From Nanobdellota archaeon (GTDB taxonomy: Archaea; Nanobdellota; Nanobdellia; Nanobdellales; Nanobdellaceae): a stretch of DNA of 32,000 bases. The position numbers and the translations under genes are program-made. The notes beneath the pieces were generated by a model that ran no database searches, was not told the origin of the DNA, and saw only the letters and a program-made list of their open reading frames with translations. Shown one piece after another: positions 1,158-30,756 of this stretch. The stretch is taken from contig AP031373.1 of assembly GCA_042850255.1 (NCBI GenBank), forward strand, positions 570,001-602,000. The letters run 5' to 3'. The number at the start of each line of letters is the position of its first letter. The stretch's first letter is position 1.

Positions 1158-1594
1158 TCTTCGAATTCTAATATATCCCCTACAGTAACATAATCAGATT
1201 TCTTATTATTTTCCAATTTTTCCGTTAAAACTTCTTTTTTAGTTATTTTTATATTTAATATTTTTTCAATTTTTTTAGCTAAATTTAAATCCGGTATTAT
1301 CTTTTTATTTTCTATAGCTTTATATAAATTTTCTTTTATTCCCAACAATTTTGCCATATCTTCTTGTTTTAAATTATGCTCTTCTCTATATTTTATTAAT
1401 ATTTTATTATAATTTTCATCAACAACTTCACCAACTATTTCCTTTATTTCTACTTTTTTCTCAATCACATTTCCTTTTTCATCTACAGGTTTCCCATATT
1501 TTTTACACTCTTCGCATACATTTAGTATAGTTCCTTCTATTAATACTTTATATAATTTATTAGTATTCTTGCCACAAAGTTCACATGTACTCAT
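1154..1594 (-). CDS. mbf1: Archaeal multiprotein bridging factor 1 (Zn-ribbon + XRE-type HTH)
   Basis: N-terminal CxxC...CxxC ('CELCGK...CEECKK'). C-terminal HTH segment 'LKQEDMAKLLGIKENLYKAIENKKIIPDLNLAKKIEKILNIKI' is typical of aMBF1. Confidence 0.8.
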   Translation of the reverse strand: MSTCELCGKNTNKLYKVLIEGTILNVCEECKKYGKPVDEKGNVIEKKVEIKEIVGEVVDENYNKILIKYREEHNLKQEDMAKLLGIKENLYKAIENKKIIPDLNLAKKIEKILNIKITKKEVLTEKLENNKKSDYVTVGDILEFEE

Positions 1595-2214
1595 CTTATT
1601 ATTTTTAGTATTTCATCCTTATATTCTATTGCTATTAATATTCCTACTATTATTCCAAATGATATTGCTGTTGCTATTAATAAATAATATAAAGCATCAA
1701 TTAGTATTGTAGAATTCAATCCTATATATGATAATGCAATTGTTATGAAAATATATATAAATAACCCTTTTATAAATACTCTAACATTATTTCTAGCATT
1801 AAATAATATAGAGAGTCCTTCTCCAATTCCTACTCCTAATAAAATAATTATTAATGCACCATATATTAAATTTAAAACATGAAATAAGAAAAATGTCTGT
1901 GGTATACTAATATATATTCCGAAAATTGTAAAATATAAAATTATATAATATTTAACTAAATCCAATATTATTTGTGATAATTTTTTCCCAAAAAATAATG
2001 TAGGATATTTTTCTGTAATATAATCAACTTTTAAGTATCCAAATATAATTCTTAATATAAAAATAATTATTTTTGCTATTATATACCCAATTACAACAAA
2101 TATTATAAACAATATAAAATCTGAAAAATATAATTGAGATTGTGCTATAAATTGTAGAAGTGGTTGTCCTATTGCTTCATATATTCTTAATAATAGTTGT
2201 CCAATAAAATCCAT
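1591..2214 (-). CDS. Polytopic membrane protein, unknown function
   Basis: 207-aa ORF, almost entirely hydrophobic helices. First gene of a four-gene overlapping minus-strand string (2214 to 19). Confidence 0.5.
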   Translation of the reverse strand: MDFIGQLLLRIYEAIGQPLLQFIAQSQLYFSDFILFIIFVVIGYIIAKIIIFILRIIFGYLKVDYITEKYPTLFFGKKLSQIILDLVKYYIILYFTIFGIYISIPQTFFLFHVLNLIYGALIIILLGVGIGEGLSILFNARNNVRVFIKGLFIYIFITIALSYIGLNSTILIDALYYLLIATAISFGIIVGILIAIEYKDEILKIIR

Positions 2215-2269: not shown

Positions 2270-2342
2270 GGGCCCGTGGCTCAGTGGCTAGAGCGTCCGG
2301 CTGATAACCGGGAGGTCGGGGGTTCGAATCCCCCCGGGCCCA
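2270..2342 (+). tRNA. tRNA-Ile (anticodon GAU)
   Basis: Hand-folded cloverleaf: acceptor GGGCCCG/CGGGCCC, D arm GCTC/GAGC, anticodon stem TCCGG/CCGGG, loop CTGATAA, T arm GGGGG-TTCGAAT-CCCCC, discriminator A. No encoded CCA. Confidence 0.9.
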
Positions 2343-2357: not shown

Positions 2358-2414
2358 ATATGATATGAAGATACACTAAAAATAAGCTTCTTTTATTAAT
2401 TTCTAGTTATAATC

Positions 2415-2422
2415 TTTATATA
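2415..2422 (+). promoter_or_regulatory. TATA box (TTTATATA) of pilin-like gene 1
   Basis: Lies at -31..-24 from the ATG at 2446. It sits within the motif 'TTATAATCTTTA' (2407-2418), which also occurs upstream of the paralogue (24730-24741, minus strand). Confidence 0.45.
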
Positions 2423-2445
2423 TTCTTGAATATTTTAATTATATT

Positions 2446-4731
2446 ATGAAATCTATTTCTCCAATTATTGCAACTATATTATTAATAGTTATTGTTATTG
2501 CAATTGCTGCATTATTATATGCATGGTTATCTGGTATGTTTAATTCTATAACATCTTCTACAACTTCTAATACTAATAAATTAACAGATACAATATCATT
2601 TAGTATTGTAAATTTATACTGTTCTAATGGATTATTATATTTTACAATATATAATAATGGAAATATACCAATTGATATTAATAATTCTATAATAACTATA
2701 AATCAAAATAATACTGTTATAGTCGTTAATGGTAATAATATTATATGTAATAATAATATAATTAATCCTGGAGATGAGGAAATATGTTATATAAATAATA
2801 TAACATGTATATATAATCCTTATACAAATATTAATCCTCAAGTATCATTAACATATCAAGGAATAAGTAATAGTAATAATTTAGGTATAGGATATGAAAT
2901 ATTAAATGGTAATAATAATACTATTAGTAGTTATTCTTCAACTAATAATACTAATTCTACAAGTAGTTCTCCAAGTAATACTACTAATACTACATCTTCC
3001 TCTCCATCATCTTCTTCACCAAGTAATACAACAAATAGTACTATATCAAATATACCTTATTATACTGTAACATTATATAATTCTCAACCCATTAATACTC
3101 CTTCTCCATTCCAACAAGATATTGCAATATGTAATGGAACAACAATACAAAATCCATATTTTGATATAGTTGGATACAATTCTACCTCAGGATCATATTC
3201 CGCATCTGTTACTTTACCTCAAAATGCAACATTATATTTATGTAATGGAGCAAGTAGTGATTTAAATTCGCTTTCATCGTTTTCTTGGATATCACAAGAA
3301 ATATCGGAAGGTACTGTTAGCCTAGGGTATCAAAATTCAAATATATGTTCTGATTCTGGTATTTCAAACTTAACGGTAGGTGGGGTTGCAATAAATACAA
3401 ACGAGTATTATAATTTCCAAGGTGATGTTTTTAGAAATGTAATCTCTTTCTCCTATAATTATATTGTAAATGCAACATCAAATGTTACAATATCAATTGC
3501 TTGTGGATATGGTGAATGTAGTTCTATTACATTACCTTCGGGCTGTCAAGTATTATTTAATACAGTAGGGCTAGATAACCATGAAACATCCTTCTTTGCA
3601 GTATGTTATAACCAATCTCCAGGAACATATACAATATCTGGATCATTAAGCTATTATGGAGATGCATCAATAGGAATATATGAATTTTCTCCATATCTTC
3701 CAAATTTAGGTTCTAATTTTGCATATGTAAATAATCAAACAATATTTAATGAAATAGATTATAATGGTCAGAATGTATATTTCTTTAGTAATACATCAAA
3801 TATAAATGGATCATTGTTATATTCTTGGTATGAAGGAGAAGCAGATTATAATAATTTATATTGTAAAATATGGTGGGTAAATATATCTAATGGAATTCCT
3901 GCAAATAGTAATTATACAATTTATATGTATATTGGAAATAATAGTAATAATTATTATTCACAATATTATCCTTATGTAGGTGTATCACCACAAGTTATTT
4001 CAGGTTACGATAACGGTCAAGATATATTTATATCTTATGGATATTTTAATAATACATTTGATGGTTGGAGTGCTTATAATTATTCTGATAGTTTTGTACC
4101 CTTACCAACGCCTTATGGTATTGAAATGCTAAATAATATATCTTATGAAGGAACATATATTTTACCATATAATAACGGAAATGTTCCAGAGATACCATTA
4201 ATTGTGGAAGAGGCTTGGTATTATAGTGGAATTAATAACGGAGATATTGTTTCAAAAGAGGCCAACTCCATTTCTTTATTTGGAAATACTAGTGAACAAG
4301 TAGATATAAATAATAATGGAGTTGTACCAGCTTCCAATTATTCTACATCAACTCAATTTGCATATGATCCAGGCATTTATACTGACTACTTAGAGTACGC
4401 AACAAATAATCAAGTCTTAAACTCTACATATTTTTCAACTTCTGGTGGTGTATTTTATTCATATTTACTAGTTAACCAAACTTATGCTCAAGCTGGTTGG
4501 TATCACTATAATCTTAACCAAATGTGGATTCCATTAATATTATTAGATAGCTACTCATTAGATCAGAATTATTATACATATTCAGATCTAAATTATAATC
4601 CTTTTCAATATCATACTTTAGAAATTGGTGCTGGAGCAGGATTTTCATATGGGTCTTATCAATATGTAGAATGGGTAGTTGCTAGAGCATATCCTCCTAA
4701 TGGAATTATGCCTTCAATCTATATAAGTTAA
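2446..4731 (+). CDS. Large surface protein: archaeal type IV pilin-like (class III) signal peptide, Cys-containing N-terminal beta domain, S/T/N-rich stalk, interrupted DUF2341-like C-terminal module
   Basis: N-terminus 'MKS/ISPIIATILLIVIVIAIAALLYAWLSGMF' matches the Pilin_N (PF07790-type) pattern. 'PFQQDIAI...FAYVNNQT...YSWYEGE...IWWVNISNGIPANSNYTIYMYIG...WVVARAYPPNGIMPS' resembles DUF2341 proteins of thermoacidophilic archaea (from memory). Many N-x-S/T sequons. Confidence 0.7.
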   Translation: MKSISPIIATILLIVIVIAIAALLYAWLSGMFNSITSSTTSNTNKLTDTISFSIVNLYCSNGLLYFTIYNNGNIPIDINNSIITINQNNTVIVVNGNNIICNNNIINPGDEEICYINNITCIYNPYTNINPQVSLTYQGISNSNNLGIGYEILNGNNNTISSYSSTNNTNSTSSSPSNTTNTTSSSPSSSSPSNTTNSTISNIPYYTVTLYNSQPINTPSPFQQDIAICNGTTIQNPYFDIVGYNSTSGSYSASVTLPQNATLYLCNGASSDLNSLSSFSWISQEISEGTVSLGYQNSNICSDSGISNLTVGGVAINTNEYYNFQGDVFRNVISFSYNYIVNATSNVTISIACGYGECSSITLPSGCQVLFNTVGLDNHETSFFAVCYNQSPGTYTISGSLSYYGDASIGIYEFSPYLPNLGSNFAYVNNQTIFNEIDYNGQNVYFFSNTSNINGSLLYSWYEGEADYNNLYCKIWWVNISNGIPANSNYTIYMYIGNNSNNYYSQYYPYVGVSPQVISGYDNGQDIFISYGYFNNTFDGWSAYNYSDSFVPLPTPYGIEMLNNISYEGTYILPYNNGNVPEIPLIVEEAWYYSGINNGDIVSKEANSISLFGNTSEQVDINNNGVVPASNYSTSTQFAYDPGIYTDYLEYATNNQVLNSTYFSTSGGVFYSYLLVNQTYAQAGWYHYNLNQMWIPLILLDSYSLDQNYYTYSDLNYNPFQYHTLEIGAGAGFSYGSYQYVEWVVARAYPPNGIMPSIYIS
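2965..3042 (+). repeat. Imperfect in-frame direct repeat encoding 'SSPSNTTN(T/S)T' twice within an S/T/N-rich linker
   Basis: 'agttctccaagtaatactactaatact' (from 2965) and 'tcttcaccaagtaatacaacaaatagt' (from 3013). The paralogue at 23103-24689 lacks this linker. Confidence 0.6.
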
Positions 4732-4736
4732 AAAAC

Positions 4737-4863
4737 TGCGGGGGAGGGGATTTGAACCCCTGGCGGGCCTTAACCCATCGGGTCTCTTACCTTGTGGTGC
4801 GGCGAATAGATTATATTATCAAGGTCTTAAGCCCGACCCCTTTGACCGCTCGGGCACCCCCGC
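4737..4863 (-). tRNA. tRNA-Leu (anticodon UAA), class II long variable arm, with intron
   Basis: Minus strand: GCGGGGG-TG-CCC-GAGCGGTCAAA-GGG-G-TCGGG-CTTAAG[intron]A-CCCGA-TGGGTTAAGGCCCGCC-AGGGG-TTCAAAT-CCCCT-CCCCCGC-A. Exons total 85 nt. A T6 run follows the 3' end and overlaps the stop codon of the opposite-strand gene. Confidence 0.85.
4784..4825 (-). other. tRNA intron (about 42 nt) at canonical position 37/38
   Basis: Interrupts the anticodon loop after CTTAAG. The intron ends carry the complementary hexamers ACCTTG...CAAGGT. The exact splice points are ambiguous by one A. Confidence 0.7.
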
Positions 4864-4889
4864 GTATTTTTAATTAATAATGATTTGTC

Positions 4890-4897
4890 TTTTAAAA
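4890..4897. promoter_or_regulatory. Palindromic TATA element TTTTAAAA, apparently shared by divergent tRNA-Leu and rps8e
   Basis: It is the only TATA-like box at a suitable distance in the 56-nt spacer: -30..-23 from the S8e ATG (4920) and -34..-27 from tRNA-Leu position 1 (4863). Confidence 0.45.
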
Positions 4898-4919
4898 TTT
4901 TTTCATTATAATTAAAGAA

Positions 4920-5339
4920 ATGGTAACTGTATATAGAAAATTAGGATTATCAATATATCAAGGTAAGGACTTAAGAAAAGAAAGTGGTAAAATTAAAACA
5001 CCTAATAGTAAAAAGAGAAGAATACACTATGGTAGATATTCTACATATACTAAATTATCTAAAAGTAATGATGAATTAAGATATATTGTAAGGGTAAAAG
5101 GTGGTAATTATAAAGTAAAATTAAAAGAAGCTTTATACGCAAATGTTTTGAACCCAGATAATAAAGAAATTAAAAAAGTAAAAATATTAGAAGTAGTTAA
5201 AAATCCAAATGATAAAAACTTAGATAGATTAAAGATTATAACAAAAAATACTATAATAAATACTGAAATAGGAAAAGCTGTTGTAGTATCAAGACCAGGA
5301 CAGGACGGAGTTATAAATGCTGTATTATTAAAGCAATAA
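4920..5339 (+). CDS. rps8e: 30S ribosomal protein S8e
   Basis: 'QGKDLRKESGKIK...KKRR', 'VRVKGGNYKVKL' and C-terminal 'VVVSRPGQDGVINAVLLK' are S8e hallmarks. Confidence 0.85.
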   Translation: MVTVYRKLGLSIYQGKDLRKESGKIKTPNSKKRRIHYGRYSTYTKLSKSNDELRYIVRVKGGNYKVKLKEALYANVLNPDNKEIKKVKILEVVKNPNDKNLDRLKIITKNTIINTEIGKAVVVSRPGQDGVINAVLLKQ

Positions 5340-5393
5340 TTTTTAAATAAGGTAAAAATAAATTTATAAAATCTTTTTGCATATTCATACTTT

Positions 5394-5612
5394 ATGGATA
5401 TAGTCAGACCTTTGGATGTAATAACACAATCAAAAGGTAAAGAAATAATAGTAGAAATGAAGAATGGTAAACAATATAGAGGAAAATTAGTAGCATCAGA
5501 TGTTCATCCTAATATGGTATTAGAAGATGCAACAGAATTAGACACAAACAAAAAATTACCTTGGATATTCTTAAGGGGAGATAATATATCAGTTATAAAA
5601 CCAGCAGAATAA
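5394..5612 (+). CDS. Sm-like (LSm/SmAP) RNA-binding protein
   Basis: 72 aa. Sm1/Sm2 pattern: 'PLDVI...GKEIIVEMKNGKQYRGKLVASDVHPNMVLEDA...IFLRGDNISVI'. Confidence 0.85.
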   Translation: MDIVRPLDVITQSKGKEIIVEMKNGKQYRGKLVASDVHPNMVLEDATELDTNKKLPWIFLRGDNISVIKPAE

Positions 5613-5616
5613 AAAA

Positions 5617-5883
5617 TTAAACAAGATCTTCTTCAGATACAACTATATAATCTCCAACTGCCTTAACAGCAACAAAAGGTACTAAAAATCCATCTTTTGT
5701 TTTTTCTAATCCTAATCTTTCAGCATTTTCAGTAGGATTCTTTAATATAATATTTAATACTTCTCCACTTTTTTCTTCGAATTGCAAGTCTGCTACGTCT
5801 CCTAATTTTCTACCTTTATCAGTAACTACCGGTCTATTTATTAAAGATGAGGCTTCATATCTATCCATAATATAAAAATACAA
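5617..5883 (-). CDS. PRC-barrel domain protein
   Basis: 88 aa. 'LINRPVVTDKGRKLGDVADLQFEEKSGEVLNIIL...FVAVKAVGDYIVV' fits the PRC-barrel pattern. Confidence 0.6.
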   Translation of the reverse strand: MYFYIMDRYEASSLINRPVVTDKGRKLGDVADLQFEEKSGEVLNIILKNPTENAERLGLEKTKDGFLVPFVAVKAVGDYIVVSEEDLV

Positions 5884-5902
5884 AATACGAAATTATAAAG
5901 TT

Positions 5903-6880
5903 TTATACATCCCTTACCCCTTCTTCCGTTATTTTAAATACTGCTTCCCTCTCAGGTAAATGAGGAGCATCAATCAATCTTGCAATCCTAGTCCTTTCTT
6001 TACCCTTTCTTAAGAATATTCTATATGTTATTGCATGAGCTAGTACATGTCCACCGACTGCTTGTTGATCTAATGCAAAGAACCCTTCAGGTTTTGCCAT
6101 AACCTGGTTAGTAACATATACTGCAATATTATATACAGTTGCTAACTTTAATAGATCCCTTAAATGTTGGTTCAACTTTTGCTGCCTTTCTGCTAAATTA
6201 CTTCTTCCAACATATTCTGCTCTAAAATGTGCAGTAATGGAATCTATTACCAATAATCTAATATTTCTTCCTTCATGTATTAAAGAAGGTATTTTCTTTA
6301 CAATATTAATTTGATGATCAGAATTATATGCTCTAATAAACAATATATTCTTTAAAACAGATTCAGGATCTAATCCTACACCCTTTGCCATTTGTACAAT
6401 TCTTTCAGGTCTAAATGTTCCTTCTGTATCAATATATACTGCTTGAGCAGGTTTATCCTGTTCACTTAATCCTCCTTTATCTTTTGGTAATTGTACATTA
6501 ACTGCCAACTGATGTCCTAATTGTGTTTTTCCCGATCCAAATTCACCAAATGCTTCTACTAAAGATTGAGTTTCAATTCCTCCTCCTAATAAATCATCCA
6601 AAGCTTTCGATCCTGTAGTTATTCTTTCAATTACTTGTCTAGAATTAAAGTAATCATATGCAGTTTTAAATCCTTGACCTACTATATCTTGAGCTAATTC
6701 AACTAATTTCTTTGCAGTTTCTTCACCCAATCCGCATTTTTCAACTAATTCATGAGTAGAAGACATTGCTAAATCTTCTATTGTAAATATACCAGCTTCT
6801 CTTAACTTTTGTGCAGTTTTTGGGCCTACTCCAGGCAAATCTTCTAAACTTTTTATTTTTTCTTCTTCCTCTGTAGCCAT
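5903..6880 (-). CDS. radA: DNA repair and recombination protein RadA
   Basis: N-terminal HhH '[19 protein letters not shown]', Walker A 'GEFGSGKTQ', '[15 protein letters not shown]' and 'VYVTNQV'. AATATAAA box at -29..-22 (6902-6909). Confidence 0.95.
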
Positions 6881-6910
6881 TAAGATTATATAAATTCAAA
6901 CTTTATATTT

Positions 6911-7510
6911 TTATATATTCATAAAATCTTTTATTAATAATTCATTTATTTTATTTTCATCCAAAGATAAATATCTTAAATAATTTATTTCTTCTTTATT
7001 CAATTTTAATAACTTAGATCCATGGAATCCTTTTGATTTATCATTTTTTACATCTAATATAGGTAATAGTATTGATATTCCATTTTCTTCTAACAGTATT
7101 TGATTTAATTTTCCCTCCGAATTTTCAGAATCTTTATCTATCAATATTTTAGATATTATAACAACTTTCTTCTCATTATATATCTTTTCCAAAAATTCTC
7201 CATAACTTTTATTTTTAATATTATATAAATTATAAAAATATAATTCTCCATTATTTTCAATTAAAAAATCTATTTTTACATTTCCTTCAATGTTAAATTC
7301 ATTATATATCATTGATTTTTTATCATTTTTTATCCTAAATTTTATATTACAATTTTTTAAATTAAATACATTATAATAAATCTTTTCATCTAAATTTATT
7401 TCAAATATTTTATCATAATCTATATTATATTCATTTTTAATTATTTCATATTTATCAAAGTTCCTATCATAGTATTTCCTAAACAATTCTTTAAAAAATG
7501 TTGAATCCAT
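6911..7510 (-). CDS. Miniature SufB/SufD-like protein (candidate Fe-S scaffold partner of SufC)
   Basis: 199 aa, overlaps the sufC stop by 20 nt. C-terminus 'LPILDVKNDKSKGFHGSKLLKLNKEEINYLRYLSLDENKINELLIKDF' aligns by eye to the SufB/D signature '[48 protein letters not shown]'. Confidence 0.4.
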   Translation of the reverse strand: MDSTFFKELFRKYYDRNFDKYEIIKNEYNIDYDKIFEINLDEKIYYNVFNLKNCNIKFRIKNDKKSMIYNEFNIEGNVKIDFLIENNGELYFYNLYNIKNKSYGEFLEKIYNEKKVVIISKILIDKDSENSEGKLNQILLEENGISILLPILDVKNDKSKGFHGSKLLKLNKEEINYLRYLSLDENKINELLIKDFMNI

Positions 7511-8180
7511 ATTCTTCTATTTTATCCAATATTTCTTTACCTCCTTGATATTTTACTTCCCCATTTAAAATTATTACTACTTTATCTATATCTAAATCTT
7601 TTACAAATTTTAAATTATGCGAAATTAAAATTATCATTCTTCCTTCTTCTTTAAATTTCTTTAAATAATCCTTTAATTTTTCCAAAAATTCTATATCAGA
7701 TCCTGAATCTATTTCATCAAATATTAATATTTTTCTATTTAATAATATAGATAATAATAACGAAAATCTTTTCTTTTCTCCTCCAGATAAGTTATAATTT
7801 ATACCTCTATCTAAAAAATCATCTGGTAATCCTAATTCTTTTCCTAATTTTTTTATTTCTTCTTCATTATAATTATTTAAAATATTCATTAATAATGTTC
7901 TTGTTTTAATATTTTCTATCTCTATTGGATTTTGAAATGAATAATATATATATTTTGCTATATTTTCTGTTTTTTCATTTGTTATATCAATATTATCTAG
8001 TATTATTTTCCCATCTTTTTTGAAATTTTCATCATTTAATATTGCTTTGCACAAAGATGTTTTTCCAGAACCATTTGGTCCAAATATTAAATATAATTTT
8101 CCATAATCAAATTCTAAATTTACATTTTTCAATATTTTTTTATCTTCATAATATATATTAAGATTTTTTATCTCGAGCAT
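7491..8180 (-). CDS. sufC: Fe-S cluster assembly ATPase SufC
   Basis: Walker A 'GPNGSGKTS', 'FQNPIEI', signature 'LSGGEKKR', Walker B 'ILIFDEIDSGSDI'. Colinear with E. coli SufC through to the C-terminal 'EEYGF'. Confidence 0.8.
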   Translation of the reverse strand: MLEIKNLNIYYEDKKILKNVNLEFDYGKLYLIFGPNGSGKTSLCKAILNDENFKKDGKIILDNIDITNEKTENIAKYIYYSFQNPIEIENIKTRTLLMNILNNYNEEEIKKLGKELGLPDDFLDRGINYNLSGGEKKRFSLLLSILLNRKILIFDEIDSGSDIEFLEKLKDYLKKFKEEGRMIILISHNLKFVKDLDIDKVVIILNGEVKYQGGKEILDKIEEYGFNIF

Positions 8181-8219
8181 TCAGAATAATTATAAAAAAT
8201 ATTTATATATATAACTTTG

Positions 8220-8741
8220 TTATATCTGTCTAGAATTTCTAAAAGAAGGAGTTAAACCTCTTAATGCTCTTTTTCTATGTTTTTTCAATAATAACCAGGA
8301 ATATTCTTCTCTATTATATATATTAGGATTGTTCGGATCTACTAATATTACTTCAAACCATTTATATTTACCATCTTCTCCTACGTAATAAGATCCTAAT
8401 ATTTCCATATTTGAATATTTTCTTTGAACTCTTTGTTCTGCAATTGATTGTAATGATATATTTAAAGGTCTGTAAAATTGATAATTAACGGATTTTACAT
8501 GTCTTGGCATATCCTTTCTTTTCCTCCATCCTTTTTTTACTCTTACCCTTACTAATACTATTCCATTTATTGGTTTCCATCCTAATCTTCTAGCTTTATC
8601 TAATCTAGTAGGTCTTTCAATTCTAACTATTTCAGGTTCTCTTCTCCAAATTATCAATCTTTCTCTAATAAATTTTTTTATTCTTTCATCTTTAAATCTC
8701 TTTTTCCATATTTCGGAAATATAAGAATAAAAAGATTTCAT
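8220..8741 (-). CDS. rpl15e: 50S ribosomal protein L15e
   Basis: 'YISEIWKK', 'RLIIWRREPEIVRIERPTRLDKARRLGWKPINGIVLVRVRVKKG' is a typical L15e N-terminus. Confidence 0.9.
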   Translation of the reverse strand: MKSFYSYISEIWKKRFKDERIKKFIRERLIIWRREPEIVRIERPTRLDKARRLGWKPINGIVLVRVRVKKGWRKRKDMPRHVKSVNYQFYRPLNISLQSIAEQRVQRKYSNMEILGSYYVGEDGKYKWFEVILVDPNNPNIYNREEYSWLLLKKHRKRALRGLTPSFRNSRQI

Positions 8742-9001
8742 TGTTTTTGTTGATTACTATCTTGTTTATTCTCTTCCTTTTTTTCCTCCTCTTCCAATTC
8801 TTTTTCTATTTCCTTTAGTTCTTTTTCTAATTTTTTATCCTCGAATCCTATCCATAACAATATTATCCCTAGTATTAAAAATATTGGTCCTAATAATCCT
8901 TTTATAATAATTATTACCTCTTCTAACCAATACCATACTAATCCTATTCCCAATAATAATAATACTACCCCTAAAGCAGATTCTTTTATCCAATCCTTCA
9001 T
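8738..9001 (-). CDS. Small membrane protein with E/K-rich tail
   Basis: 87 aa with two hydrophobic helices and then 'KELKEIEKELEEEEKKEENK'. 4-nt overlap with the rpl15e start. No recognisable family. Confidence 0.4.
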   Translation of the reverse strand: MKDWIKESALGVVLLLLGIGLVWYWLEEVIIIIKGLLGPIFLILGIILLWIGFEDKKLEKELKEIEKELEEEEKKEENKQDSNQQKQ

Positions 9002-9041
9002 TTAATATTAACTATAAATAACTTTTTTAAATATAATATTA

Positions 9042-9932
9042 ATGCATGAAATTATCAAAGAATTAGAAAATTTAATTAATCAAATACCAAAAGGAAAAGT
9101 TACTACATTTAAAATATTGTCAGAGTATCTCGGATCAACATATTCTATAAAATTTATATTGCAATATTATAAAAAATTAAATGTTCCTTGGTGGAGGATT
9201 GTAAATGAAAATGGTATAGTAAGAGATCTTGAACAAAAAGAATTATTAACAAAGGAAGGGGTAATAATTAAAAATGATAAAGTAGATTTAGATAAATATC
9301 TATTTGATAGATTTTATGTTAAAGAAAAAATATTAGAAAAATATAGGAAAATACAGCTAGAATTAGTGAAAAATATTATTTTGGAAGATAGAGTAAATAA
9401 CATAAATTATGTAGGAGGTGTAGATTTAAGTTATGATAAAGATTTTGGATATATAGTATATGTTATATTGGATAAAGAATTAAATGTAATAAATAAATAT
9501 ATATTTAAAGAAAAAATAGAGTTTCCATATATTCCATCTTTTCTAGCATTTAGAGAAGGAGAACCAATTATAAAAACATTTAATAAAATTAGAGAAAAAA
9601 TTGATATTTTATTTGTAAATGGACACGGAGTTTCTCATCCAGCGAAAATGGGTCTTGCATCATATGTAGGGGTCAAATTAAATATCCCAACAATTGGAAT
9701 TACAAAATCTCTATTATATGGAAAAATAATAGGTAATAAAATAATAATAGATAATGAAGTTAGAGGATTTGTAATAGAAAAATTTAATAGAAAAATATTT
9801 GTATCTCCTGGAAATTTAATATCTTTAGAAAAAAGTAAAGAATTGTCTGAAAAATTTTGGATAAAAGGAAATTATCCAGAACCAATTAGATTAGCTGATG
9901 AAATAAGTAAAAAGATTAAACATAAGGGATAA
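9042..9932 (+). CDS. Fusion protein: alkyltransferase-like (ATL/AGT DNA-binding) domain + endonuclease V domain
   Basis: aa 15-60 'IPKGKVTTFKILSEYLG...NVPWWRIVNENG' fits the AGT/ATL C-terminal domain, with Trp where AGT has the reactive Cys. aa 120-296 carry the EndoV motifs 'GGVDLSY', 'PYIPSFLAFRE', 'FVNGHGVSHP', 'IPTIGITK' and 'PEPIRLAD'. Confidence 0.8.
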   Translation: MHEIIKELENLINQIPKGKVTTFKILSEYLGSTYSIKFILQYYKKLNVPWWRIVNENGIVRDLEQKELLTKEGVIIKNDKVDLDKYLFDRFYVKEKILEKYRKIQLELVKNIILEDRVNNINYVGGVDLSYDKDFGYIVYVILDKELNVINKYIFKEKIEFPYIPSFLAFREGEPIIKTFNKIREKIDILFVNGHGVSHPAKMGLASYVGVKLNIPTIGITKSLLYGKIIGNKIIIDNEVRGFVIEKFNRKIFVSPGNLISLEKSKELSEKFWIKGNYPEPIRLADEISKKIKHKG

Positions 9933-10233
9933 CCTTTTTTATATATTCTTTAAATTTATCTACCTTCAAGTATAGCGCAGACAATATATCATAAGTAGAA
10001 TATTGTAGAACAGATGGTGTTATATAGTCTGAAGAAAACTTATGAGTAATTATATAACAAATATATAGTGATAATAATAATCCTGCAGTATTATATAAAT
10101 ATAATTTCTCTAAACTTTTTGAATTATCTGGAAAATAATATTTTATTACATTAACTATAAGTTTCTTTAATCTTGGATATTTATAAAAAATTCTGTCTAA
10201 TTTTTCCTCTAAATTCTTTTTATTAAATTTCAT
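9916..10233 (-). CDS. Hypothetical protein (one hydrophobic segment)
   Basis: 105-aa ORF whose start overlaps the aIF5A stop by 4 nt (operon-like). No family recognised. Confidence 0.35.
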   Translation of the reverse strand: MKFNKKNLEEKLDRIFYKYPRLKKLIVNVIKYYFPDNSKSLEKLYLYNTAGLLLSLYICYIITHKFSSDYITPSVLQYSTYDILSALYLKVDKFKEYIKKVIPYV

Positions 10234-10631
10234 TCTCTAAATGCCTGTACTATTATTTTTTCTCCTATATCCCAAATTAATACTTTCTGTCCTTCTTGTA
10301 CTTTTCCTTTCAAATTTTCATCAATAACCTTTGCATCAAATGTTTCATATGTATCTAAGTTCATTACTGTATAAACATCATCAGATACTTTTGCTATTAC
10401 TTGTCCTCTTATTTTATTAATCACAGGAACTTCTATAGGATCCTGTGTTGGTTTTACTAGTTCAGTGGTTTTACCAGATACTAATGATCTTATTACTATT
10501 CTTGCCTTTGCAGAACCATGTTTCCCAGTTTTAGCAGTTTCCATTTCCAATACTTCCCATACTTCATTATTGTACCATACATATGATCCTTTCTTCAAAT
10601 CAATTACTTTTTTTACTTGTATTTCTGGCAT
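10230..10631 (-). CDS. eif5a: Translation initiation factor 5A (aIF5A)
   Basis: Hypusine-site motif 'KTGKHGSAKARIV', with the usual SH3-like N-domain and OB C-domain length (133 aa). Confidence 0.9.
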   Translation of the reverse strand: MPEIQVKKVIDLKKGSYVWYNNEVWEVLEMETAKTGKHGSAKARIVIRSLVSGKTTELVKPTQDPIEVPVINKIRGQVIAKVSDDVYTVMNLDTYETFDAKVIDENLKGKVQEGQKVLIWDIGEKIIVQAFRE

Positions 10632-10672
10632 TCTATAATATATTTCTTAAATATTTAAATAATTATTTTAGA

Positions 10673-11881
10673 ATGGAAGTAGAGTATTTAAAAAATGATG
10701 TACCATTATATAAAATATATTTAGATAATGTTAATAGCATAGGTATTGGAATAGGATTTAATATAGGTTCTATATATGAAGAAAAAGATAAGAGAGGTAT
10801 ATCTCACTTTCTAGAACATATGATGTTTAAATCTAATGAAAAGTATACTGCAGAGCAAATTGATTATGGATTAGAATTAAATGGTGGAATTTCTAATGCT
10901 TATACATCTTATGATATAACTGGATACATTGTAGAGACAATACCAGAAGGGTTTAATAAAGTATTAGATATATTGTATTATGCAATAATAAATAAAAAAT
11001 ATAAACAGGAAGAATTTGAAAATGAGAAAAAAGTTGTTATGTCTGAAATATTGAGATATGAAAACGATCCAGAAAGTTTATTACATCTTTACTTAGGTAA
11101 ATCATTATTTGGAGATTCTGATATTGGAGATCCAATAGGCGGTACAAAAGATACTATAATAAATATAAATAAAGAAGATATTGAAGAATTTAAGGAAAAA
11201 TATTACAATCCTGATAACATGATAATTCTTTTAGAAGGGAAATTTAATGATGACCATGTAAAATTAGTAAAAGAATATTTTGAAAAAATGGAAGGAAATA
11301 GTAATAAAAAGAAAGAACCTTCTGTTAGTGATGGAAAAGATATTATAATTAAAAAAGATGGAATAAGGGATCAAATATATTATTCTTTATCTACAAATTT
11401 TAATGAAGAAGATTTAATTAATTTAGAAGCTTTATCTTCAATATTATCTGGAGGTGTATCATCAAAAGTATTTCAAATATTTAGAAATAAATATGGAATT
11501 GGATATTCTGTTTATTTATTTACAACTTTAATATATAAATATTCAATATTATCATTAATGATCCCAGGATTTGATAAAGATAAAGAAAATATGTTAAATG
11601 ATGCTATAAATTATTTTATAGATAAGTATAATGAGTATATAGATAAAGAATATATAGATGGTAGGATAAGAAGAGAGAAATTTTTATATCTAACAAAAAC
11701 AAAGGATAATATATTTAGAAGATTATTTGAAGATATAGAATATATAATTAAATTTGGAAAAAGTATTGATGATATAGAGAAAGAAGTAGAGGAAATTATA
11801 AAAAATAATTATATAGATTTGGAAAAATATTTAAAGAAATTATATAATGGTAAAAAAGTAATAATATATCCAAATGATTGA
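10673..11881 (+). CDS. M16 (pitrilysin) family zinc peptidase
   Basis: Inverted zinc motif HxxEH in 'ISHFLEHMMFKS'. I chose the ATG at 10673 (MEVEYLK...) because the track start at 10583 lies antisense inside aIF5A. Confidence 0.75.
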   Translation: MEVEYLKNDVPLYKIYLDNVNSIGIGIGFNIGSIYEEKDKRGISHFLEHMMFKSNEKYTAEQIDYGLELNGGISNAYTSYDITGYIVETIPEGFNKVLDILYYAIINKKYKQEEFENEKKVVMSEILRYENDPESLLHLYLGKSLFGDSDIGDPIGGTKDTIININKEDIEEFKEKYYNPDNMIILLEGKFNDDHVKLVKEYFEKMEGNSNKKKEPSVSDGKDIIIKKDGIRDQIYYSLSTNFNEEDLINLEALSSILSGGVSSKVFQIFRNKYGIGYSVYLFTTLIYKYSILSLMIPGFDKDKENMLNDAINYFIDKYNEYIDKEYIDGRIRREKFLYLTKTKDNIFRRLFEDIEYIIKFGKSIDDIEKEVEEIIKNNYIDLEKYLKKLYNGKKVIIYPND

Positions 11882-12506
11882 AGAAATAATAAAAGGAATA
11901 AAAGAAACATTAGAAGAAAATAATATAAATGAAAAATTAGCTTCTCCATATATTTGGGAAAAATATAAAGATCCATTAAAGGTATTAATAACTATATTGT
12001 TATCTATAAGGGTTAGAGAAGAAAAGACATTGGAAGTTTCCGAGAGACTATTTAATAAATTTAAAACACTTGAAGATTTAAAAAGAGCAAGTTTGGAAGA
12101 AATAAAAGATACTATAAAAGATATTGGATTATATAATAATAAAGCAAAATGGATAAAAGAAATTGTGAATTTATGGGATTATAGTAAATATTGCGATGAA
12201 GAATATATAAGGAGTTTACCAGGAATTGGGAGAAAAGTTGCAAATGTATATTTAATAATTGTATGTAACAAAAATTATATTGCAGTAGATACTCATGTTC
12301 ATAGAATATTTAATAGAATTGGCATTGTTAATACAAAATATCCTGAAGATACAGAAAAAGAATTATATAAAATTATTCCAGAAAAATATTGGAAAGATAT
12401 AAATTTTTTATTTGTAATATTTGGAAGAAATATTTGTAAACCTATAAATCCAAAATGTAATATTTGTAAAATAAAAAATATATGTAATTATGGAAAAAAT
12501 TATTGA
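11874..12506 (+). CDS. nth: Endonuclease III (HhH-GPD DNA glycosylase/AP lyase)
   Basis: HhH 'LPGIGRKVANVYL', 'VDTHVHRIFNRIG', and a C-terminal C-x6-C-x2-C-x5-C cluster ('CKPINPKCNICKIKNIC'). Confidence 0.85.
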   Translation: MIEEIIKGIKETLEENNINEKLASPYIWEKYKDPLKVLITILLSIRVREEKTLEVSERLFNKFKTLEDLKRASLEEIKDTIKDIGLYNNKAKWIKEIVNLWDYSKYCDEEYIRSLPGIGRKVANVYLIIVCNKNYIAVDTHVHRIFNRIGIVNTKYPEDTEKELYKIIPEKYWKDINFLFVIFGRNICKPINPKCNICKIKNICNYGKNY

Positions 12507-18791: not shown

Positions 18792-20315
18792 ATGGATAAA
18801 AAATTACTATTATTTCTATTATTATTTCTTCTATTTCCAATACATTCACAAATGAACCTAATTATTTATCCTCAGGTAAATCAAATAATTGAAGGAGGAC
18901 AAAATTTTGTACCAATAACATTTACAATAATAAATGCAGGTCCAACACTATTTAATGTCACATTTTATCCAATAAATGAATTTCCATTTTATCAGGCAAA
19001 TTATTATAATAATACACAAAATATAACAATAGAACAAATAAATCAAGGACAAAATATTACAATAACACTTTTCTATTATATTTCTCCAAATATAAATCCT
19101 GGTATATATGAAATACAGGTTGGAGCATATGAATATTATTATGGATTACAAAATTCTGAAATATTAAATACATCAATACCAATATTAGGTTATACAAATT
19201 TTTCTATTAACTCATTTTTTGGAACTCAAAATAATATAATTTTACCTTATAATAATCAAAAAGATGTGCCATTAACATTTGTTATAATAAATGATGGAAA
19301 TACAATACTAAATAATGTAACAGTATATTTCAATAATAACTCTAATATAGAATTTTTAGAAAATCAATATTATATAGGAATATTACCAATAGGACAGCCT
19401 TATTTTTTAACTACATATGTAAATATTAATAATTTATCTACAGGTATAAATTATGTAACATTAAATATTTCATATTTTGATGGAGATTATCAAACAATAA
19501 ATGTTCCAATTAATTTTGGATATACTAATATAGGAATAAATACTTATACTAATCCTGTAACAATATATCCGGGTAATCCTGTTCTATTAGATTCTATAAT
19601 ATTTAATTATGGTAATCAACCTGCAGGTAATTTTTATATAAATATATATTCTCCATTTGAATTATTAACATCAAATTATTATAATTTGGGAATATTGTAT
19701 CCAGGGTCTATATATAATATTTCATCATTAATATATATTCCAAGTAATACTTCTCCAGGTTATTATCCAATAATTTATGAATTAAATTATAATAACCAAC
19801 AATATAATTATACATATTATATACATGTATTGGGAGAAGCAAACATTTCAATAACAAATGTATATTATAATAATTTATATCCAGGATCTTCAGAAGTACC
19901 CATTACTGTTAATATAAAGAATATAGGAAATGTTGAAGCAAAGAATTTAATTGCAATAATTGGATCTAATAATGTAATATATCCATATGTAAGTTCTTCA
20001 AATCCATTAAGAGCATTAACAGCTTCAGAAATAAATGTAGGAAATTTATATCCAAATCAAAGTATAAATATAACATTTATAATAAAAGTATCATCTGGAG
20101 CTAATTATGGAAATTATTCTTTACCAATAATATTTGTATGGAATCAATCAGAATCTTTATATCCATTTTCTCAAGAAGAAAATATAAATATACAAGTAAT
20201 TGAACCTTTCTATTATAATCCAGAATTTTATATTAAAATAATAATCCCAATAATAATAGTAATAATTATTGGACTTATGTTATATAAATTTAGAAAAAGA
20301 AAGAATAAAAAATGA
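18792..20315 (+). CDS. Secreted, C-terminally membrane-anchored multi-domain surface protein (COG1361/CARDB-like beta-sandwich repeats)
   Basis: Signal peptide 'MDKKLLLFLLLFLLFPIHSQ'. About four ~100-aa units with the recurring pattern 'V(P/L)ITFxIxNxGxxxxxNVxV...PGxYxI'. C-terminal TM 'IIIPIIIVIIIGLMLY' plus 'KFRKRKNKK'. Dense in N-x-S/T sequons. Confidence 0.6.
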   Translation: MDKKLLLFLLLFLLFPIHSQMNLIIYPQVNQIIEGGQNFVPITFTIINAGPTLFNVTFYPINEFPFYQANYYNNTQNITIEQINQGQNITITLFYYISPNINPGIYEIQVGAYEYYYGLQNSEILNTSIPILGYTNFSINSFFGTQNNIILPYNNQKDVPLTFVIINDGNTILNNVTVYFNNNSNIEFLENQYYIGILPIGQPYFLTTYVNINNLSTGINYVTLNISYFDGDYQTINVPINFGYTNIGINTYTNPVTIYPGNPVLLDSIIFNYGNQPAGNFYINIYSPFELLTSNYYNLGILYPGSIYNISSLIYIPSNTSPGYYPIIYELNYNNQQYNYTYYIHVLGEANISITNVYYNNLYPGSSEVPITVNIKNIGNVEAKNLIAIIGSNNVIYPYVSSSNPLRALTASEINVGNLYPNQSINITFIIKVSSGANYGNYSLPIIFVWNQSESLYPFSQEENINIQVIEPFYYNPEFYIKIIIPIIIVIIIGLMLYKFRKRKNKK

Positions 20316-21979: not shown

Positions 21980-23106
21980 ATAAAAATATAAATATTTTAA
22001 TAATATTTAGAATATTTAGAAGTTCAATTGCAGGATATATTACAGTATTTTTACCATTATTTTTATATAATGTATTAAAATTATCTTTAATTGATATAGG
22101 AATATTATTTGCATTGGGATCTTTATTTCAATCAATTTTATCATTTTTTATAGGATATTTAGGAGATAAATATAATAAGAAAAAATTATTATTTTATATT
22201 TCATTATTATTCCCTTTATCTTTAGTTATTCTTTATTTTTCTTCAAATATATATTTATTGATTATTTCATTTATTTTAGGTGGATTTGGGACTGTTGGTG
22301 CATTGGCTGGAGGCGGTGTTGGAGCAGTTGTTACTCCTATAATGAATTCTTTAATAACTGGATATGTAAATGAAAATAGAGAAAAGATTTATTCATATTT
22401 TATAATTATTTCAGGTTTGTCAGGTTCTTTAGGTGCATTATTGTTGTTCTTTTATTATAAATTTGTTTTAATATTTGGAATAATTATTTTATTATTTTCT
22501 TCTTTACTATTATTAAAATTAGATGAACCAAAAGAGATTATAATAAATAATAAAGAAGAAAGAAAAGTTGAAGGTTTAATAATATTATCTGGATTTTTAA
22601 ATGGAGCTTCTGCAGGAATAATTTATAATTTCTTACCAATAATATTTAACCATTATTTAGATTTTTCAAAAGATCAAATTAGTTTAATATATACTATTAC
22701 AGGTTTAATATCTGTTATATCACTATATTTTATTGAAAAATATATTAATTGGAATATATTTAAGAAAATTGTTTCATTTAGAATTATTTCATCAATATTT
22801 TTAATAATATTTTTAATTTCTACAATTTTTGTTTTATCAATTATTTCAATATTATCATTCATAATTTATACAACATTTAGGGTTGCATCAATTCCTTCTC
22901 AACAAGAAGTTATATCAGAAAATATTGGAAAAAGATTATCTGAAACATTTGGAGCAAATCAAAGTACAAGAATTTTAGGATCATTTATATTTCAATCTTT
23001 AGGAGGATATTTATTATCTTTATCAATTATTGCACCATTTTTAATATCTTCGATATTTTTATCAACAAGCGCATTCATTTATTATAAAATTAGAAGAATG
23101 AATTAA
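21976..23106 (+). CDS. MFS-type transporter
   Basis: 376 aa with about 10-12 TM helices. Motif-A-like 'GYLGDKYNKKKLLF'. Confidence 0.6.
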   Translation: MNKNINILIIFRIFRSSIAGYITVFLPLFLYNVLKLSLIDIGILFALGSLFQSILSFFIGYLGDKYNKKKLLFYISLLFPLSLVILYFSSNIYLLIISFILGGFGTVGALAGGGVGAVVTPIMNSLITGYVNENREKIYSYFIIISGLSGSLGALLLFFYYKFVLIFGIIILLFSSLLLLKLDEPKEIIINNKEERKVEGLIILSGFLNGASAGIIYNFLPIIFNHYLDFSKDQISLIYTITGLISVISLYFIEKYINWNIFKKIVSFRIISSIFLIIFLISTIFVLSIISILSFIIYTTFRVASIPSQQEVISENIGKRLSETFGANQSTRILGSFIFQSLGGYLLSLSIIAPFLISSIFLSTSAFIYYKIRRMN

Positions 23107-24689: not shown

Positions 24690-24835
24690 AATATTATTAA
24701 GATATTTAAGGATTTTAAGATTTATTATCTAAAGATTATAATCTGGTCAGAAATTATATATTACTGCTAAATTTTTGATATATTTAATTTGGATAATGTT
24801 ATAAATTATAAGGCAAATAATTAGTGCTTATAAAA

Positions 24836-25512: not shown

Positions 25513-25586
25513 TGGGGCGGGTGGGATTTGAACCCACGACCTTCCGGTCTTCAGCCGGACGCTCTCCCGGTCTGAGCTACCGCCCC
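25513..25586 (-). tRNA. tRNA-Phe (anticodon GAA)
   Basis: Minus strand: GGGGCGG-TA-GCTC-AGACCGGGA-GAGC-G-TCCGG-CTGAAGA-CCGGA-AGGTC-GTGGG-TTCAAAT-CCCAC-CCGCCCC-A. Confidence 0.9.
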
Positions 25587-25599
25587 TTACAATATTAAT

Positions 25600-25607
25600 T
25601 TTTATTA
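25600..25607 (+). promoter_or_regulatory. TATA-like box TTTTATTA of the XPD gene
   Basis: Lies at -30..-23 from the ATG at 25630, inside the 43-nt spacer shared with tRNA-Phe. Confidence 0.4.
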
Positions 25608-25629
25608 TCCATAACTTTATATTTTTATA

Positions 25630-30026: not shown

Positions 30027-30057
30027 TTATTTTAGATTCTTTGATATATTTAAAAAA

Positions 30058-30756
30058 CTATTTTAATAGTTCCAGTGCTTCTTCTATTGTTGCATTATAT
30101 GATAATATTTTACCACTTCTTATTACTACTATTCTATTTGTTTGTTCTGCAATCTTTGGATCATGCGTTACTATTACTACTGTTTTACCTTCTTCTTTAT
30201 TTAAATTTTTCAATATATTCATAACATCTTTTGCGGATTTTTCATCTAAATTTCCAGTAGGTTCATCCGCTAAAATTAGTTCAGGATTATTTATTAATGC
30301 TCTTGCAATTGCAACTCTTTGTTGTTGTCCTCCAGATAATTGATTTGGATAATGGTTTAATCTATTACCTAATCCTAATCTTTCTAAAATTTCTTTTGCC
30401 TTTTCTATATTATTTTTTCCAGAAATTCTTGAAGGTATAGTTACATTTTCTAATGCGGTTAAATAATTAAATAAATAAAATTGTTGGAATACAAATCCTA
30501 TTTTTTTGTTTCTTATTTCTGATAATTTATTATCTGATAAATTAGATATATCTTCTCCAAATAAATAAACCTTACCAGAAGTAGGTCTATCTAATAATCC
30601 AATTATTGATAATAATGTAGATTTACCAGAACCAGAAGGTCCCATAATTGATACTAGCTCACCTTCCTTTATTTCTAAATCAATATTATCCAATGCTTTT
30701 ATCTCACTATCTCCCATTTTATATATCTTTGTCACCTTTTCCAATTTTATTATCAT
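30058..30756 (-). CDS. ABC transporter ATP-binding protein (MacB/LolD, COG1136 type)
   Basis: Walker A 'GPSGSGKST', 'IGFVFQQFYL', signature 'LSGGQQQRVAIARAL', Walker B 'LILADEPTGNLD', H-loop 'VTHD'. Confidence 0.9.
   Translation of the reverse strand: MIIKLEKVTKIYKMGDSEIKALDNIDLEIKEGELVSIMGPSGSGKSTLLSIIGLLDRPTSGKVYLFGEDISNLSDNKLSEIRNKKIGFVFQQFYLFNYLTALENVTIPSRISGKNNIEKAKEILERLGLGNRLNHYPNQLSGGQQQRVAIARALINNPELILADEPTGNLDEKSAKDVMNILKNLNKEEGKTVVIVTHDPKIAEQTNRIVVIRSGKILSYNATIEEALELLK

Follow-up and report, generated by a model that had tools for sequence, protein, structure and literature searches.

In Sulfolobales, the clade that includes the host of the organism considered here, Ups pili mediate species-specific, glycan-dependent cell-cell recognition. 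Among bacteria, the PilC protein of Streptococcus sanguinis joins a class III signal and a pilin moiety to a concanavalin A (ConA)-like lectin, is located at the pilus tip and binds glycans (PMC9934059), and PilB has been described as well (PMC8179133). In archaea, DUF2341 proteins encoded in type IV pilus (T4P) loci (Epd-type, arCOG03508) have been predicted to be tip adhesins (PMC4858521), and the DUF2341 protein MMJJ_08210 of Methanococcus maripaludis, which was repeatedly hit in a screen for transformation defects, is needed for transformation (PMC10133366). Here we describe YN1_6470, a protein of 761 amino acids (aa) encoded in a stretch of 32,000 nucleotides (nt) from the genome of the Nanobdellota archaeon YN1 (contig AP031373.1, positions 570,001 to 602,000; hereinafter the window, with coordinates counted from its first nucleotide). 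The protein consists of a pilin moiety, a stalk and a head in which a ConA-like module homologous to DUF2341 is interrupted by a Cys-rich domain, and we put at roughly 0.55 the probability that it is a modular type IV pilin displaying a glycan-binding head for host adhesion.

YN1 ('Ca. Nanofervidus parviconus'; genome of 773,326 bp with 43 tRNAs and ~930 genes) lives as an obligate ectosymbiont on Sulfurisphaera ohwakuensis at pH 2-3 and 55-95 °C. A cone-shaped attachment organelle and intercellular filaments of 6.6 nm have been described for it, as have the archaellum genes FlaBDEHIJF (PMC11420986); neither pilins nor YN1_6470 are mentioned in that paper. The surface glycans of the host differ from those of the symbiont. 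T4P systems are present in hot-spring Nanoarchaeota, and for one T4P ATPase clade that occurs in nanoarchaea, Makarova et al. (2016) were unable to assign cognate pilins. In Nanobdella, cryo-electron tomography (cryoET) revealed unexplained 'thorn-like densities' on archaella and a rough 15-nm filament.

Domain architecture of YN1_6470

The gene and the regions of its product are as follows (all on the plus strand; the evidence for each assignment is given in parentheses, with pLDDT denoting the predicted local distance difference test).

2446 to 4731: open reading frame (ORF) of 761 aa plus stop codon, ATG start, 100% identical to YN1_6470
2446 to 2541: class III (prepilin-type) signal and hydrophobic alpha-1 helix, MKS/ISPIIATILLIV, residues 1-32 (TIGR02537)
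2542 to 2895: globular beta-domain of the pilin, UpsA-like, residues 33-150 (NF046073, 8fk7, pilin alignments)
2896 to 3057: S/T/N-rich linker or stalk, residues 151-204, 54 aa (composition, low pLDDT, alignment gaps)
3058 to 3141: first strands of the jelly-roll, YYTVTLYNSQPINTPSPFQQDIAICNGT, residues 205-232 (alignments; pLDDT 75-80)
3142 to 3702: six-Cys beta-domain nested in the module, residues 233-419, 187 aa (alignments; pLDDT)
3703 to 4035: first half of the module, divergent DUF2341, residues 420-530, core ~437-503 (profile homology)
4036 to 4728: second half of the ConA-like jelly-roll, residues 531-761, ending WVVARAYPPNGIMPS (L-type lectins in Foldseek)

The N-terminus reads exactly as quoted in the first-pass annotation of this sequence. 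Residues 2-32 match TIGR02537 (arch_flag_Nterm; archaellin/type IV pilin N-terminal domain) with 33.4 bits, above the cutoff of 20, and a leader, a cleavage motif and a hydrophobic helix (alpha-1, predicted at residues 6-35) are all present as expected of a type IV pilin, so that the class III signal claimed in that annotation stands; the leader would be cleaved after MKS. The beta-domain that follows contains the four Cys residues noted earlier (59, 101, 114, 121) and is recognizable as a pilin by homology to filament subunits. The best NCBIfam match of the N-domain is NF046073 (UpsA; E 1.2e-17 over residues 1-111). The family profile retrieved from the PDB the flagellar-like type IV pilus subunit of Pyrobaculum calidifontis, 8fk7 (E 2.2e-5), which is also matched in Foldseek by the N-domain of the full-length model (E 1.7e-3, template modeling score (TM) 0.51 normalised to the target, 21% identity), as is FlaF (4p94). 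With residues 1-150 alone as the query, 57 homologs were retrieved, all of them nanoarchaeal and most of them stand-alone pilins of 155-163 aa, including YN1_1520, MJ1_0596 and a Nanobsidianus protein named 'pilin subunit UpsA' by NCBI. The N-domain aligns with these ~160-aa pilins from the first to the last residue (40-64% identity), which implies that the anchor reproduces in full the small pilin of this lineage. Furthermore, 26 of the first 32 residues are identical to those of YN1_1520, and an alpha-1 helix common to both proteins is what co-assembly would require. Recent transfer of UpsA from the host was considered as a source of this domain and finds no support because all 57 N-domain homologs are nanoarchaeal.

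The S/T/N-rich stalk reported previously was located at residues 151-204. It consists of S, T and N by 78%, contains 7 sequons, is modeled with pLDDT of only 27-38 and is missing, as seen from alignment gaps, in the 528-aa paralog YN1_6700; it is probably flexible and glycosylated. The description of the whole protein as saturated with N-x-S/T sequons is justified only in part: 30 are observed compared to 21.8 +/- 3.9 expected from composition (p ~0.02), and their density is mostly accounted for by the abundance of N (14%), S (13%) and T (8%). Lys and Arg together make up 0.8% of the protein, which fits an acid-exposed location; with only six such residues, YN1_6470 will probably be missed by trypsin-based proteomics.

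The head module comprises residues 205-232 and 420-761 (~370 aa), two segments that are contiguous in ~100 homologs. The motifs on which the first-pass annotation based the DUF2341 assignment are indeed present, namely PFQQ at 221-224, SWYEGE...WWVNISNGIPANSNYTIYMYIG at 460-497 and WVVARAYPPNGIMPS at 743-757. The Pfam profile DUF2341 (PF10102; gathering score 23.4 bits) does not match YN1_6470 even at E <= 10, but the assignment can be recovered transitively. Weak DUF2341 matches at E <= 1 were found in 15 of 36 family members (best E 7.9e-4); a profile made from the module alone retrieved 771 relatives among 1.84 billion representatives; DUF2341 is carried by 35 of the 56 remote relatives that were sampled (best E 1e-20); and the alignment of the family with the remote relatives in hhalign has a probability of 100% (E 4.8e-60, 321 columns). 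In these alignments, the DUF2341 region maps to residues ~437-503, precisely where the motif had been placed, and homology of the module to DUF2341 is therefore accepted despite the lack of a direct match. Those remote relatives that bear names are called 'LamG-like jellyroll' or 'DUF2341' and belong to Micrarchaeia, Parvarchaeota, Marsarchaeota, Thermoplasmatales, Nitrososphaerales and Conexivisphaera, groups known largely from acidic or geothermal habitats.

The first AF2 model of the full-length protein was poor (pLDDT 57); an AlphaFold model built from a deeper alignment reached 70.4, with most of the module at 75-90. The modeled head is a two-sheet beta-jelly-roll of the ConA-like lectin/glucanase fold. 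A Foldseek search of the PDB with this model yielded 61 matches at E <= 1e-3, mostly lectins, with ERGIC-53 (4ygc; E 4.8e-6, TM 0.61 normalised to the target, 248 columns) and other L-type lectins (Emp46p, VIP36, legume lectins) at the top, at ~10% identity; a sequence search of the PDB returned nothing for the head.

The linear succession of pilin, stalk and C-terminal module in the first-pass annotation holds but omits the 187-aa domain at residues 233-419, which interrupts the jelly-roll after its first strands. This six-Cys domain has no match in Pfam, and its residues ~325-415 are the best-predicted part of the model (pLDDT 86-94). It is present in six of the 334 proteins examined (YN1_6470, YN1_8890, MJ1_0774, MJ1_0776, P0189 and P0168), and in P0189 it precedes an uninterrupted module, which indicates an independent domain that became nested.

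Homologs in nanoarchaea and in viruses of Sulfolobales

More than 200 homologs of YN1_6470, which rule out a spurious ORF or a chance resemblance, were found, all in the Nanopusillus, Nanobsidianus and Nanobdella lineages and several per genome. The head is joined to a variety of anchors: the common form, of ~530 aa, has a pilin helix with a globular domain; other members possess the pilin-like helix alone, a Sec signal with a T/S-rich tail, or a Sec signal with Ig-like repeats and a C-terminal transmembrane helix. Some members carry tandem heads, and MJ1_0776, labelled 'pectin lyase-like' (Kato preprint), combines a Sec signal, an insert-bearing head and a beta-helix. Among more distant proteins, the N-termini of P0161 (Parvarchaeota; ...RLFQTALEYMLTYGWAVLIIVLI) and P0193 (Marsarchaeota; ...AKAQTAFEFLLKYAAAFVFIVIV), viewed over residues 1-60, resemble by eye a class III signal of the form Q-T/S-x-E, and the same module lies ~185 aa further on, so that an independent pilin-head fusion may have occurred there; such a second fusion was set aside as it lacks Pfam or NCBIfam support.

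YN1 itself encodes at least two further family members with the same anchor, one of them in the window, where it had gone without mention in the first-pass annotation.

23103 to 24689, minus strand: paralog YN1_6700, 528 aa, same pilin anchor and uninterrupted module, without stalk or insert, as in the common form of the family (BLASTP)

The BLASTP alignment of YN1_6470 with YN1_6700 consists of two blocks with 60% and 53% identity. At the DNA level, the two genes form inverted repeats of patchy identity (72-92%) that reach ~49 nt upstream of both start codons; one repeat pair, 2397-2580 versus 24555-24738 (77% identity), includes both upstream regions. The other paralog, YN1_8890, is a mosaic when compared to YN1_6470: the anchor (residues 1-150) is identical at all 150 positions, the stalk at 91%, the first strands of the module at 96%, the insert at 61%, the DUF2341 half at 91% and the C-terminal half of the head at 58.5%. 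Residues 531-761 are, in general, the most divergent part among the YN1 paralogs. Between YN1_6470 and YN1_8890, the anchor is kept constant and the head varies, a mosaic that points to segmental gene conversion, or else to diversification confined to the head while the anchor stays the same. Two family genes in the window also stand out by a GC content of 28-32% (3001 to 5000 and 23001 to 24000) against a background of 20-25%; this elevation probably stems from amino acid composition (G, S, P, A and Y codons) and is not evidence of transfer.

Conserved proteins of two virus families that infect Sulfolobales, Rudiviridae and Bicaudaviridae, contain homologs of the head module. Neither these viral homologs nor the large family with its interchangeable anchors had been noticed in the first-pass annotation. 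A Foldseek search against viral models yielded, near the top, a 'DUF2341 domain-containing protein' of Sulfolobales Beppu rod-shaped virus 1 (E 8e-12), together with an unnamed protein of 1311 aa (E 3e-13), a 'putative lectin' of a Sulfolobales filamentous virus and other proteins of crenarchaeal viruses. At the sequence level, tblastn matched ORF1550 of Sulfolobus monocaudavirus SMV1, to which the family hidden Markov model (HMM) aligns with 117 bits (residues 299-634); the aligned region extends over a segment that is absent from generic DUF2341 relatives. The SMV1 module used as a query matched 48 virus records, namely SMV2 and the rudiviruses SIRV1/2/4/10/11, ARV1-3, SSRV1, SRV, MRV1 and SBRV1; the hosts named in the listed records are all Sulfolobales. 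Three of these viral proteins were located as follows.

L011, 4930-9582: SMV1 ORF1550, BLASTP/HMM homolog of the head
L012, 4326-6029: SIRV2 ORF564, BLASTP/HMM homolog of the head
L013, 3263-5050: SSRV1 ORF595, BLASTP/HMM homolog of the head

Overall, the viral proteins show 26-37% identity in BLASTP (E 3.5e-11 to 1e-22) and score 34-117 bits with the family HMM; for YN1_6470, the BLASTP alignment with SIRV2 ORF564 has 26% identity over 312 aa (E 3.5e-11) and that with SSRV1 ORF22-595, annotated as a 'putative viral structural protein', 29% over 313 aa. The SIRV2 homolog ORF564 (gp39) is encoded directly downstream of ORF1070, whose product, the tail-fibre protein, attaches to type IV pili of the host (PMC7911016). 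The literature that was searched contains no account of the function of SMV1 ORF1550 or SIRV2 ORF564.

Genomic context

The first-pass annotation placed the gene between two tRNA genes, and both were found.

2270 to 2342, plus strand: tRNA-Ile(GAU), 103 nt upstream of the ORF (ARAGORN; Rfam 74.8 bits)
2397 to 2445, plus strand: AT-rich sequence preceding the ORF, including a TATA-like box ~25-30 nt ahead of the start codon (alignment of upstream regions)
4737 to 4863, minus strand: tRNA-Leu(UAA), class II, with a long variable arm and an intron of ~40 nt (Rfam 46.5 bits and alignment)

The upstream region would act as a promoter. The tRNA-Leu(UAA) gene is convergent with YN1_6470 and starts 5 nt past its stop codon; the identity of this tRNA was read from the sequence, and the Rfam alignment shows the insertion after the anticodon loop. 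The gene at 4737 to 4863 was missed by ARAGORN and recovered solely with the Rfam covariance model (gathering score for tRNA, 29), which means that tRNA counts for the YN1 genome obtained with ARAGORN alone are too low. Family members have tRNA genes next to them, in the window at 2270-2342, 4737-4863 and 25513-25586 and at other loci at L001 11997-12069 and 17183-17268, L002 9825-9898 and L004 7726-7809. This is the case for ~6 of the 13 flanks examined, compared to ~0.6 expected by chance (estimated from 43 tRNAs among ~930 YN1 genes); recombination hot spots and shared strong expression signals are possible causes.

In Nanobsidianus and Nanopusillus, a single member of ~540-560 aa is located between an S8e-LSM-PRC-RadA...M16 block and a tRNA-Phe-helicase-FtsX-ABC block. 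In YN1, the same two blocks (4920 to 12506 and 25513 to 30756) lie ~20 kb apart, each with its own paralog; the paralogs are mutually inverted, and both are flipped with respect to the single-gene arrangement (L002, L003). A simple inversion between the YN1 paralogs does not restore the ancestral order. The other genes in the window encode RadA, ribosomal proteins, helicases, DNA ligase, PCNA, histone, MFS and ABC transporters and a PIN-domain protein. No confident family could be assigned to three products: a 207-aa multi-transmembrane protein encoded divergently from YN1_6470 (1591 to 2214, minus strand), a 507-aa protein with a weak match to NPCBM_assoc only (18792 to 20315, plus strand), and a 471-aa protein (28611 to 30026, minus strand) that is conserved beside FtsX/ABC in Nanobsidianus and may be an accessory subunit of a transporter. 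A 68-aa antisense ORF inside the YN1_6470 gene (2635 to 2841, minus strand) is without support and is an artefact of AT-rich sequence.

A different arrangement is found in Nanobdella, where MJ1_0772-0774 (L001 9068-11968) comprise two small genes followed, after 10 nt, by the insert-bearing MJ1_0774. Both small proteins have been called 'archaellin-like' (Kato preprint); against NCBIfam, MJ1_0772 scores 54 bits with ArlF and 38 with ArlG, and MJ1_0773 matches ArlF only (20 bits; cutoff 110). This arrangement hints at a link between the head family and the archaellum. The idea that these genes are an orthologous minor-pilin operon is weakened by the ArlF/ArlG-like nature of the small genes and by the different anchor of MJ1_0774. 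The genome of Nanobdella also contains a T2SSF gene 8 kb from MJ1_0596; used as a query, a Nanobdella T2SSF protein found matches in Nanobdella and Nanobsidianus only.

Proposed role and comparison with known systems

In the scenario we favor, the N-terminal helix would insert YN1_6470 into the membrane, a prepilin peptidase, which YN1 presumably encodes given its filaments and the archaellum genes reported for it, would remove the MKS leader, and the pilin moiety would enter a type IV filament consisting mainly of UpsA-like pilin of the YN1_1520 type or, possibly, the archaellum. Given the bulk of the head, entry would be confined to the tip or to sparse positions along the shaft. The head, projected on the stalk, would then bind a glycan or glycoprotein on the surface of the Sulfolobales host and so mediate the first contact or host recognition. 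That a whole pilin domain has been retained, and is 100% identical in two paralogs, favors incorporation into a filament. The role as an adhesin or pilus-tip protein suggested in the first-pass annotation is, accordingly, plausible.

Several observations weigh against this scenario. On the pilin side, Pfam Pilin_N (PF07790) scores 20.3 bits, under the gathering score of 25.2 (E 0.001; matches at E <= 1 in 19 of 36 family members), so that direct membership in this profile is rejected; the first-pass annotation would have been abandoned had no significant Pilin_N or DUF2341 profile match been found, an outcome that, taken to the letter, was nearly reached and is offset by the transitive homology of the module. 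With NF046073, YN1_6470 reaches 64.3 bits against an equivalog cutoff of 130 and, accordingly, is not an UpsA equivalog; YN1_6700 reaches 49.6, YN1_1520 80.7 and, as the sole one to pass, a small pilin of Nanobsidianus 136.6. As already stated in the first-pass annotation, there are no pilus assembly genes in the window: no pilus ATPase, platform or peptidase was detected among the 30 larger ORFs scanned, which are housekeeping genes or have no match. The small pilins are scattered rather than clustered with assembly genes. For YN1, only FlaBDEHIJF are reported; neither a prepilin peptidase nor T4P machinery apart from that of the archaellum could be verified, and a text search of the supplement to the YN1 paper turned up no prepilin peptidase or T4P platform. 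On the side of the head, its occurrence on Sec signals, C-terminal transmembrane anchors and a bare helix means that the head does not need a pilus, and the N-terminal 190 aa of MJ1_0774 are yet another, non-pilin anchor. The identity of 55-63% between heads from genera with different hosts is rather high for a determinant of host specificity, the module occurs widely among acidophilic archaea as a whole, and the models are of moderate confidence (pLDDT 57 and 70). To our knowledge, glycan binding has been shown for no DUF2341 protein, and metal-dependent chemistry of the L-type lectin kind is doubtful at pH 2-3.

Some of these points lead to a different, less probable picture, in which YN1_6470 would be a membrane-tethered surface lectin outside any filament, its class III N-terminus serving as a signal and anchor or as a short pseudopilus stalk. 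In Sulfolobus, the bindosome provides a precedent, with class III signals on proteins that bind sugars; the other anchors of the head (a Sec signal with a T/S tail, a C-terminal transmembrane helix, the helix alone) and the lack of adjacent assembly genes fit, and a 54-aa, putatively glycosylated stalk would suit projection through the S-layer. Such a tether, however, would not need the whole globular pilin domain, as the helix-only variants demonstrate, and yet this domain is kept at 40-64% identity to stand-alone pilins, with a nearly identical alpha-1 helix and an anchor that is 100% identical between two YN1 paralogs.

The remaining two explanations seem improbable. The ConA-like fold includes glucanases, the model has weaker Foldseek matches to GH43-associated and alginate-lyase proteins, the module is fused to a pectin-lyase-like beta-helix in MJ1_0776, and acidic residues, for example those of VEEAW at 587-591, are nearly invariant, all of which could be expected of a glycoside hydrolase or lyase that acts on host surface glycans and helps to breach the host S-layer; the top structural matches are, however, all non-catalytic L-type lectins, DUF2341 has no known enzymatic member, and no catalytic motif was identified, though none was tested for. 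If the protein were instead a structural or self-directed part, that is, an ArlF/ArlG-like partner connecting a filament at its base with the S-layer of the symbiont itself, or a constituent of the cone, the position of the insert-bearing MJ1_0774 directly after two ArlF/ArlG-like genes and the match of the N-domain model to FlaF (4p94) would be accounted for. Against this, the N-domain of YN1_6470 is UpsA-like rather than ArlF/G-like, the anchor of MJ1_0774 differs, the ArlF/G matches are far below the cutoff, and nothing links the family to the cone.

Returning to the modular pilin with an adhesive head, it would bear on the question of how ectosymbionts of the DPANN group locate a host and stay attached to it. 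Few systems of this kind have been cultivated; in two of them, YN1 and Nanobdella, cryoET has revealed elaborate attachment organelles and odd filaments, to which no protein has been assigned. The present family is a concrete candidate, with an anchor that matches the small pilins of the lineage, a head that varies between paralogs and homologs of the head in viruses. If the proposal is correct, modular lectin pilins would be known from archaea as well as from bacteria, and cellular parasites and viruses of Sulfolobales could be suspected of drawing on a common host-binding module. A broader and rather unlikely extension would hold jointly that the family represents the host-recognition adhesins of hot-spring Nanobdellota, with lectin heads on UpsA-like pili or archaella; that these heads explain the 'thorn-like densities' and the rough 15-nm filaments of Nanobdella; that the nanoarchaeal ectoparasites and Sulfolobales viruses possess a common family of host-binding modules; and that recombination between paralogs swaps heads on a constant anchor and so tunes the host range.

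Compared to systems that have been described, the architecture of YN1_6470 is that by which the Pelicic laboratory defines modular pilins, namely a class III signal, a pilin moiety and a C-terminally grafted module (PMC9934059), and bacterial PilC is, by analogy, the closest known counterpart. Both proteins are far larger than a structural pilin and carry a ConA-like module, which in PilC is the adhesive, glycan-binding unit on a type IV filament and in YN1_6470 is proposed to be the same. PilC differs in being bacterial, in its unusually short pilin moiety, which is unrelated in sequence, in having an Ig-like spacer in place of the S/T stalk and in lacking a nested domain; its gene belongs to a pil operon with partner minor pilins, whereas that of YN1_6470 stands alone, and its tip location and glycan binding are experimental findings, whereas YN1_6470 is known here from sequence and models. 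The arCOG03508 proteins likewise associate a DUF2341-family module with archaeal type IV pili but are separate large proteins encoded inside pilus operons, for which fusion to a pilin moiety has not been described; in YN1_6470, the module is fused to an UpsA-like pilin, is encoded outside any operon and falls below the Pfam threshold for DUF2341. The UV-inducible UpsA/UpsB pilins of Sulfolobales resemble the N-domain, of which UpsA is the best NCBIfam match, but UpsA has ~140 aa and no appended head, and no UpsE or UpsF is seen near YN1_6470. The head shares with L-type lectins the beta-jelly-roll fold (~245 aligned columns, TM ~0.6 normalised to the target) and differs from them in the identity of ~10%, an additional N-terminal elaboration of the DUF2341 type and the nested domain. 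With the proteins of SIRV2 (ORF564), SSRV1 and SMV1, it shares the motifs ItItNsQ..PFQQ, W.nLP..IPAnSsItIYM, YDNGxnVF and RAYPPNGVMPS; these homologs belong to agents that must attach to Sulfolobales cells, and the rudiviral gene adjoins the tail-fibre gene, but the viral proteins have no pilin anchor (a Sec signal is present in SMV1 and an unrelated N-domain in the rudiviral proteins), and their role in adsorption is putative.

The first-pass annotation thus goes too far in stating that this architecture has no described function, being preceded by PilC (PMC9934059) and by the prediction of DUF2341 tip adhesins (PMC4858521), and with modular lectin pilins and associations of DUF2341 with pili already published, YN1_6470 is not categorically new. 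What is new relative to these systems, and is not found in the YN1, Nanobdella or Nanopusillus papers examined, is that a DPANN archaeon fuses the pilin directly to the module, that a further domain is nested in the module, that the family combines the head with different anchors, that the paralogs are mosaics and that viruses of Sulfolobales encode homologous proteins.

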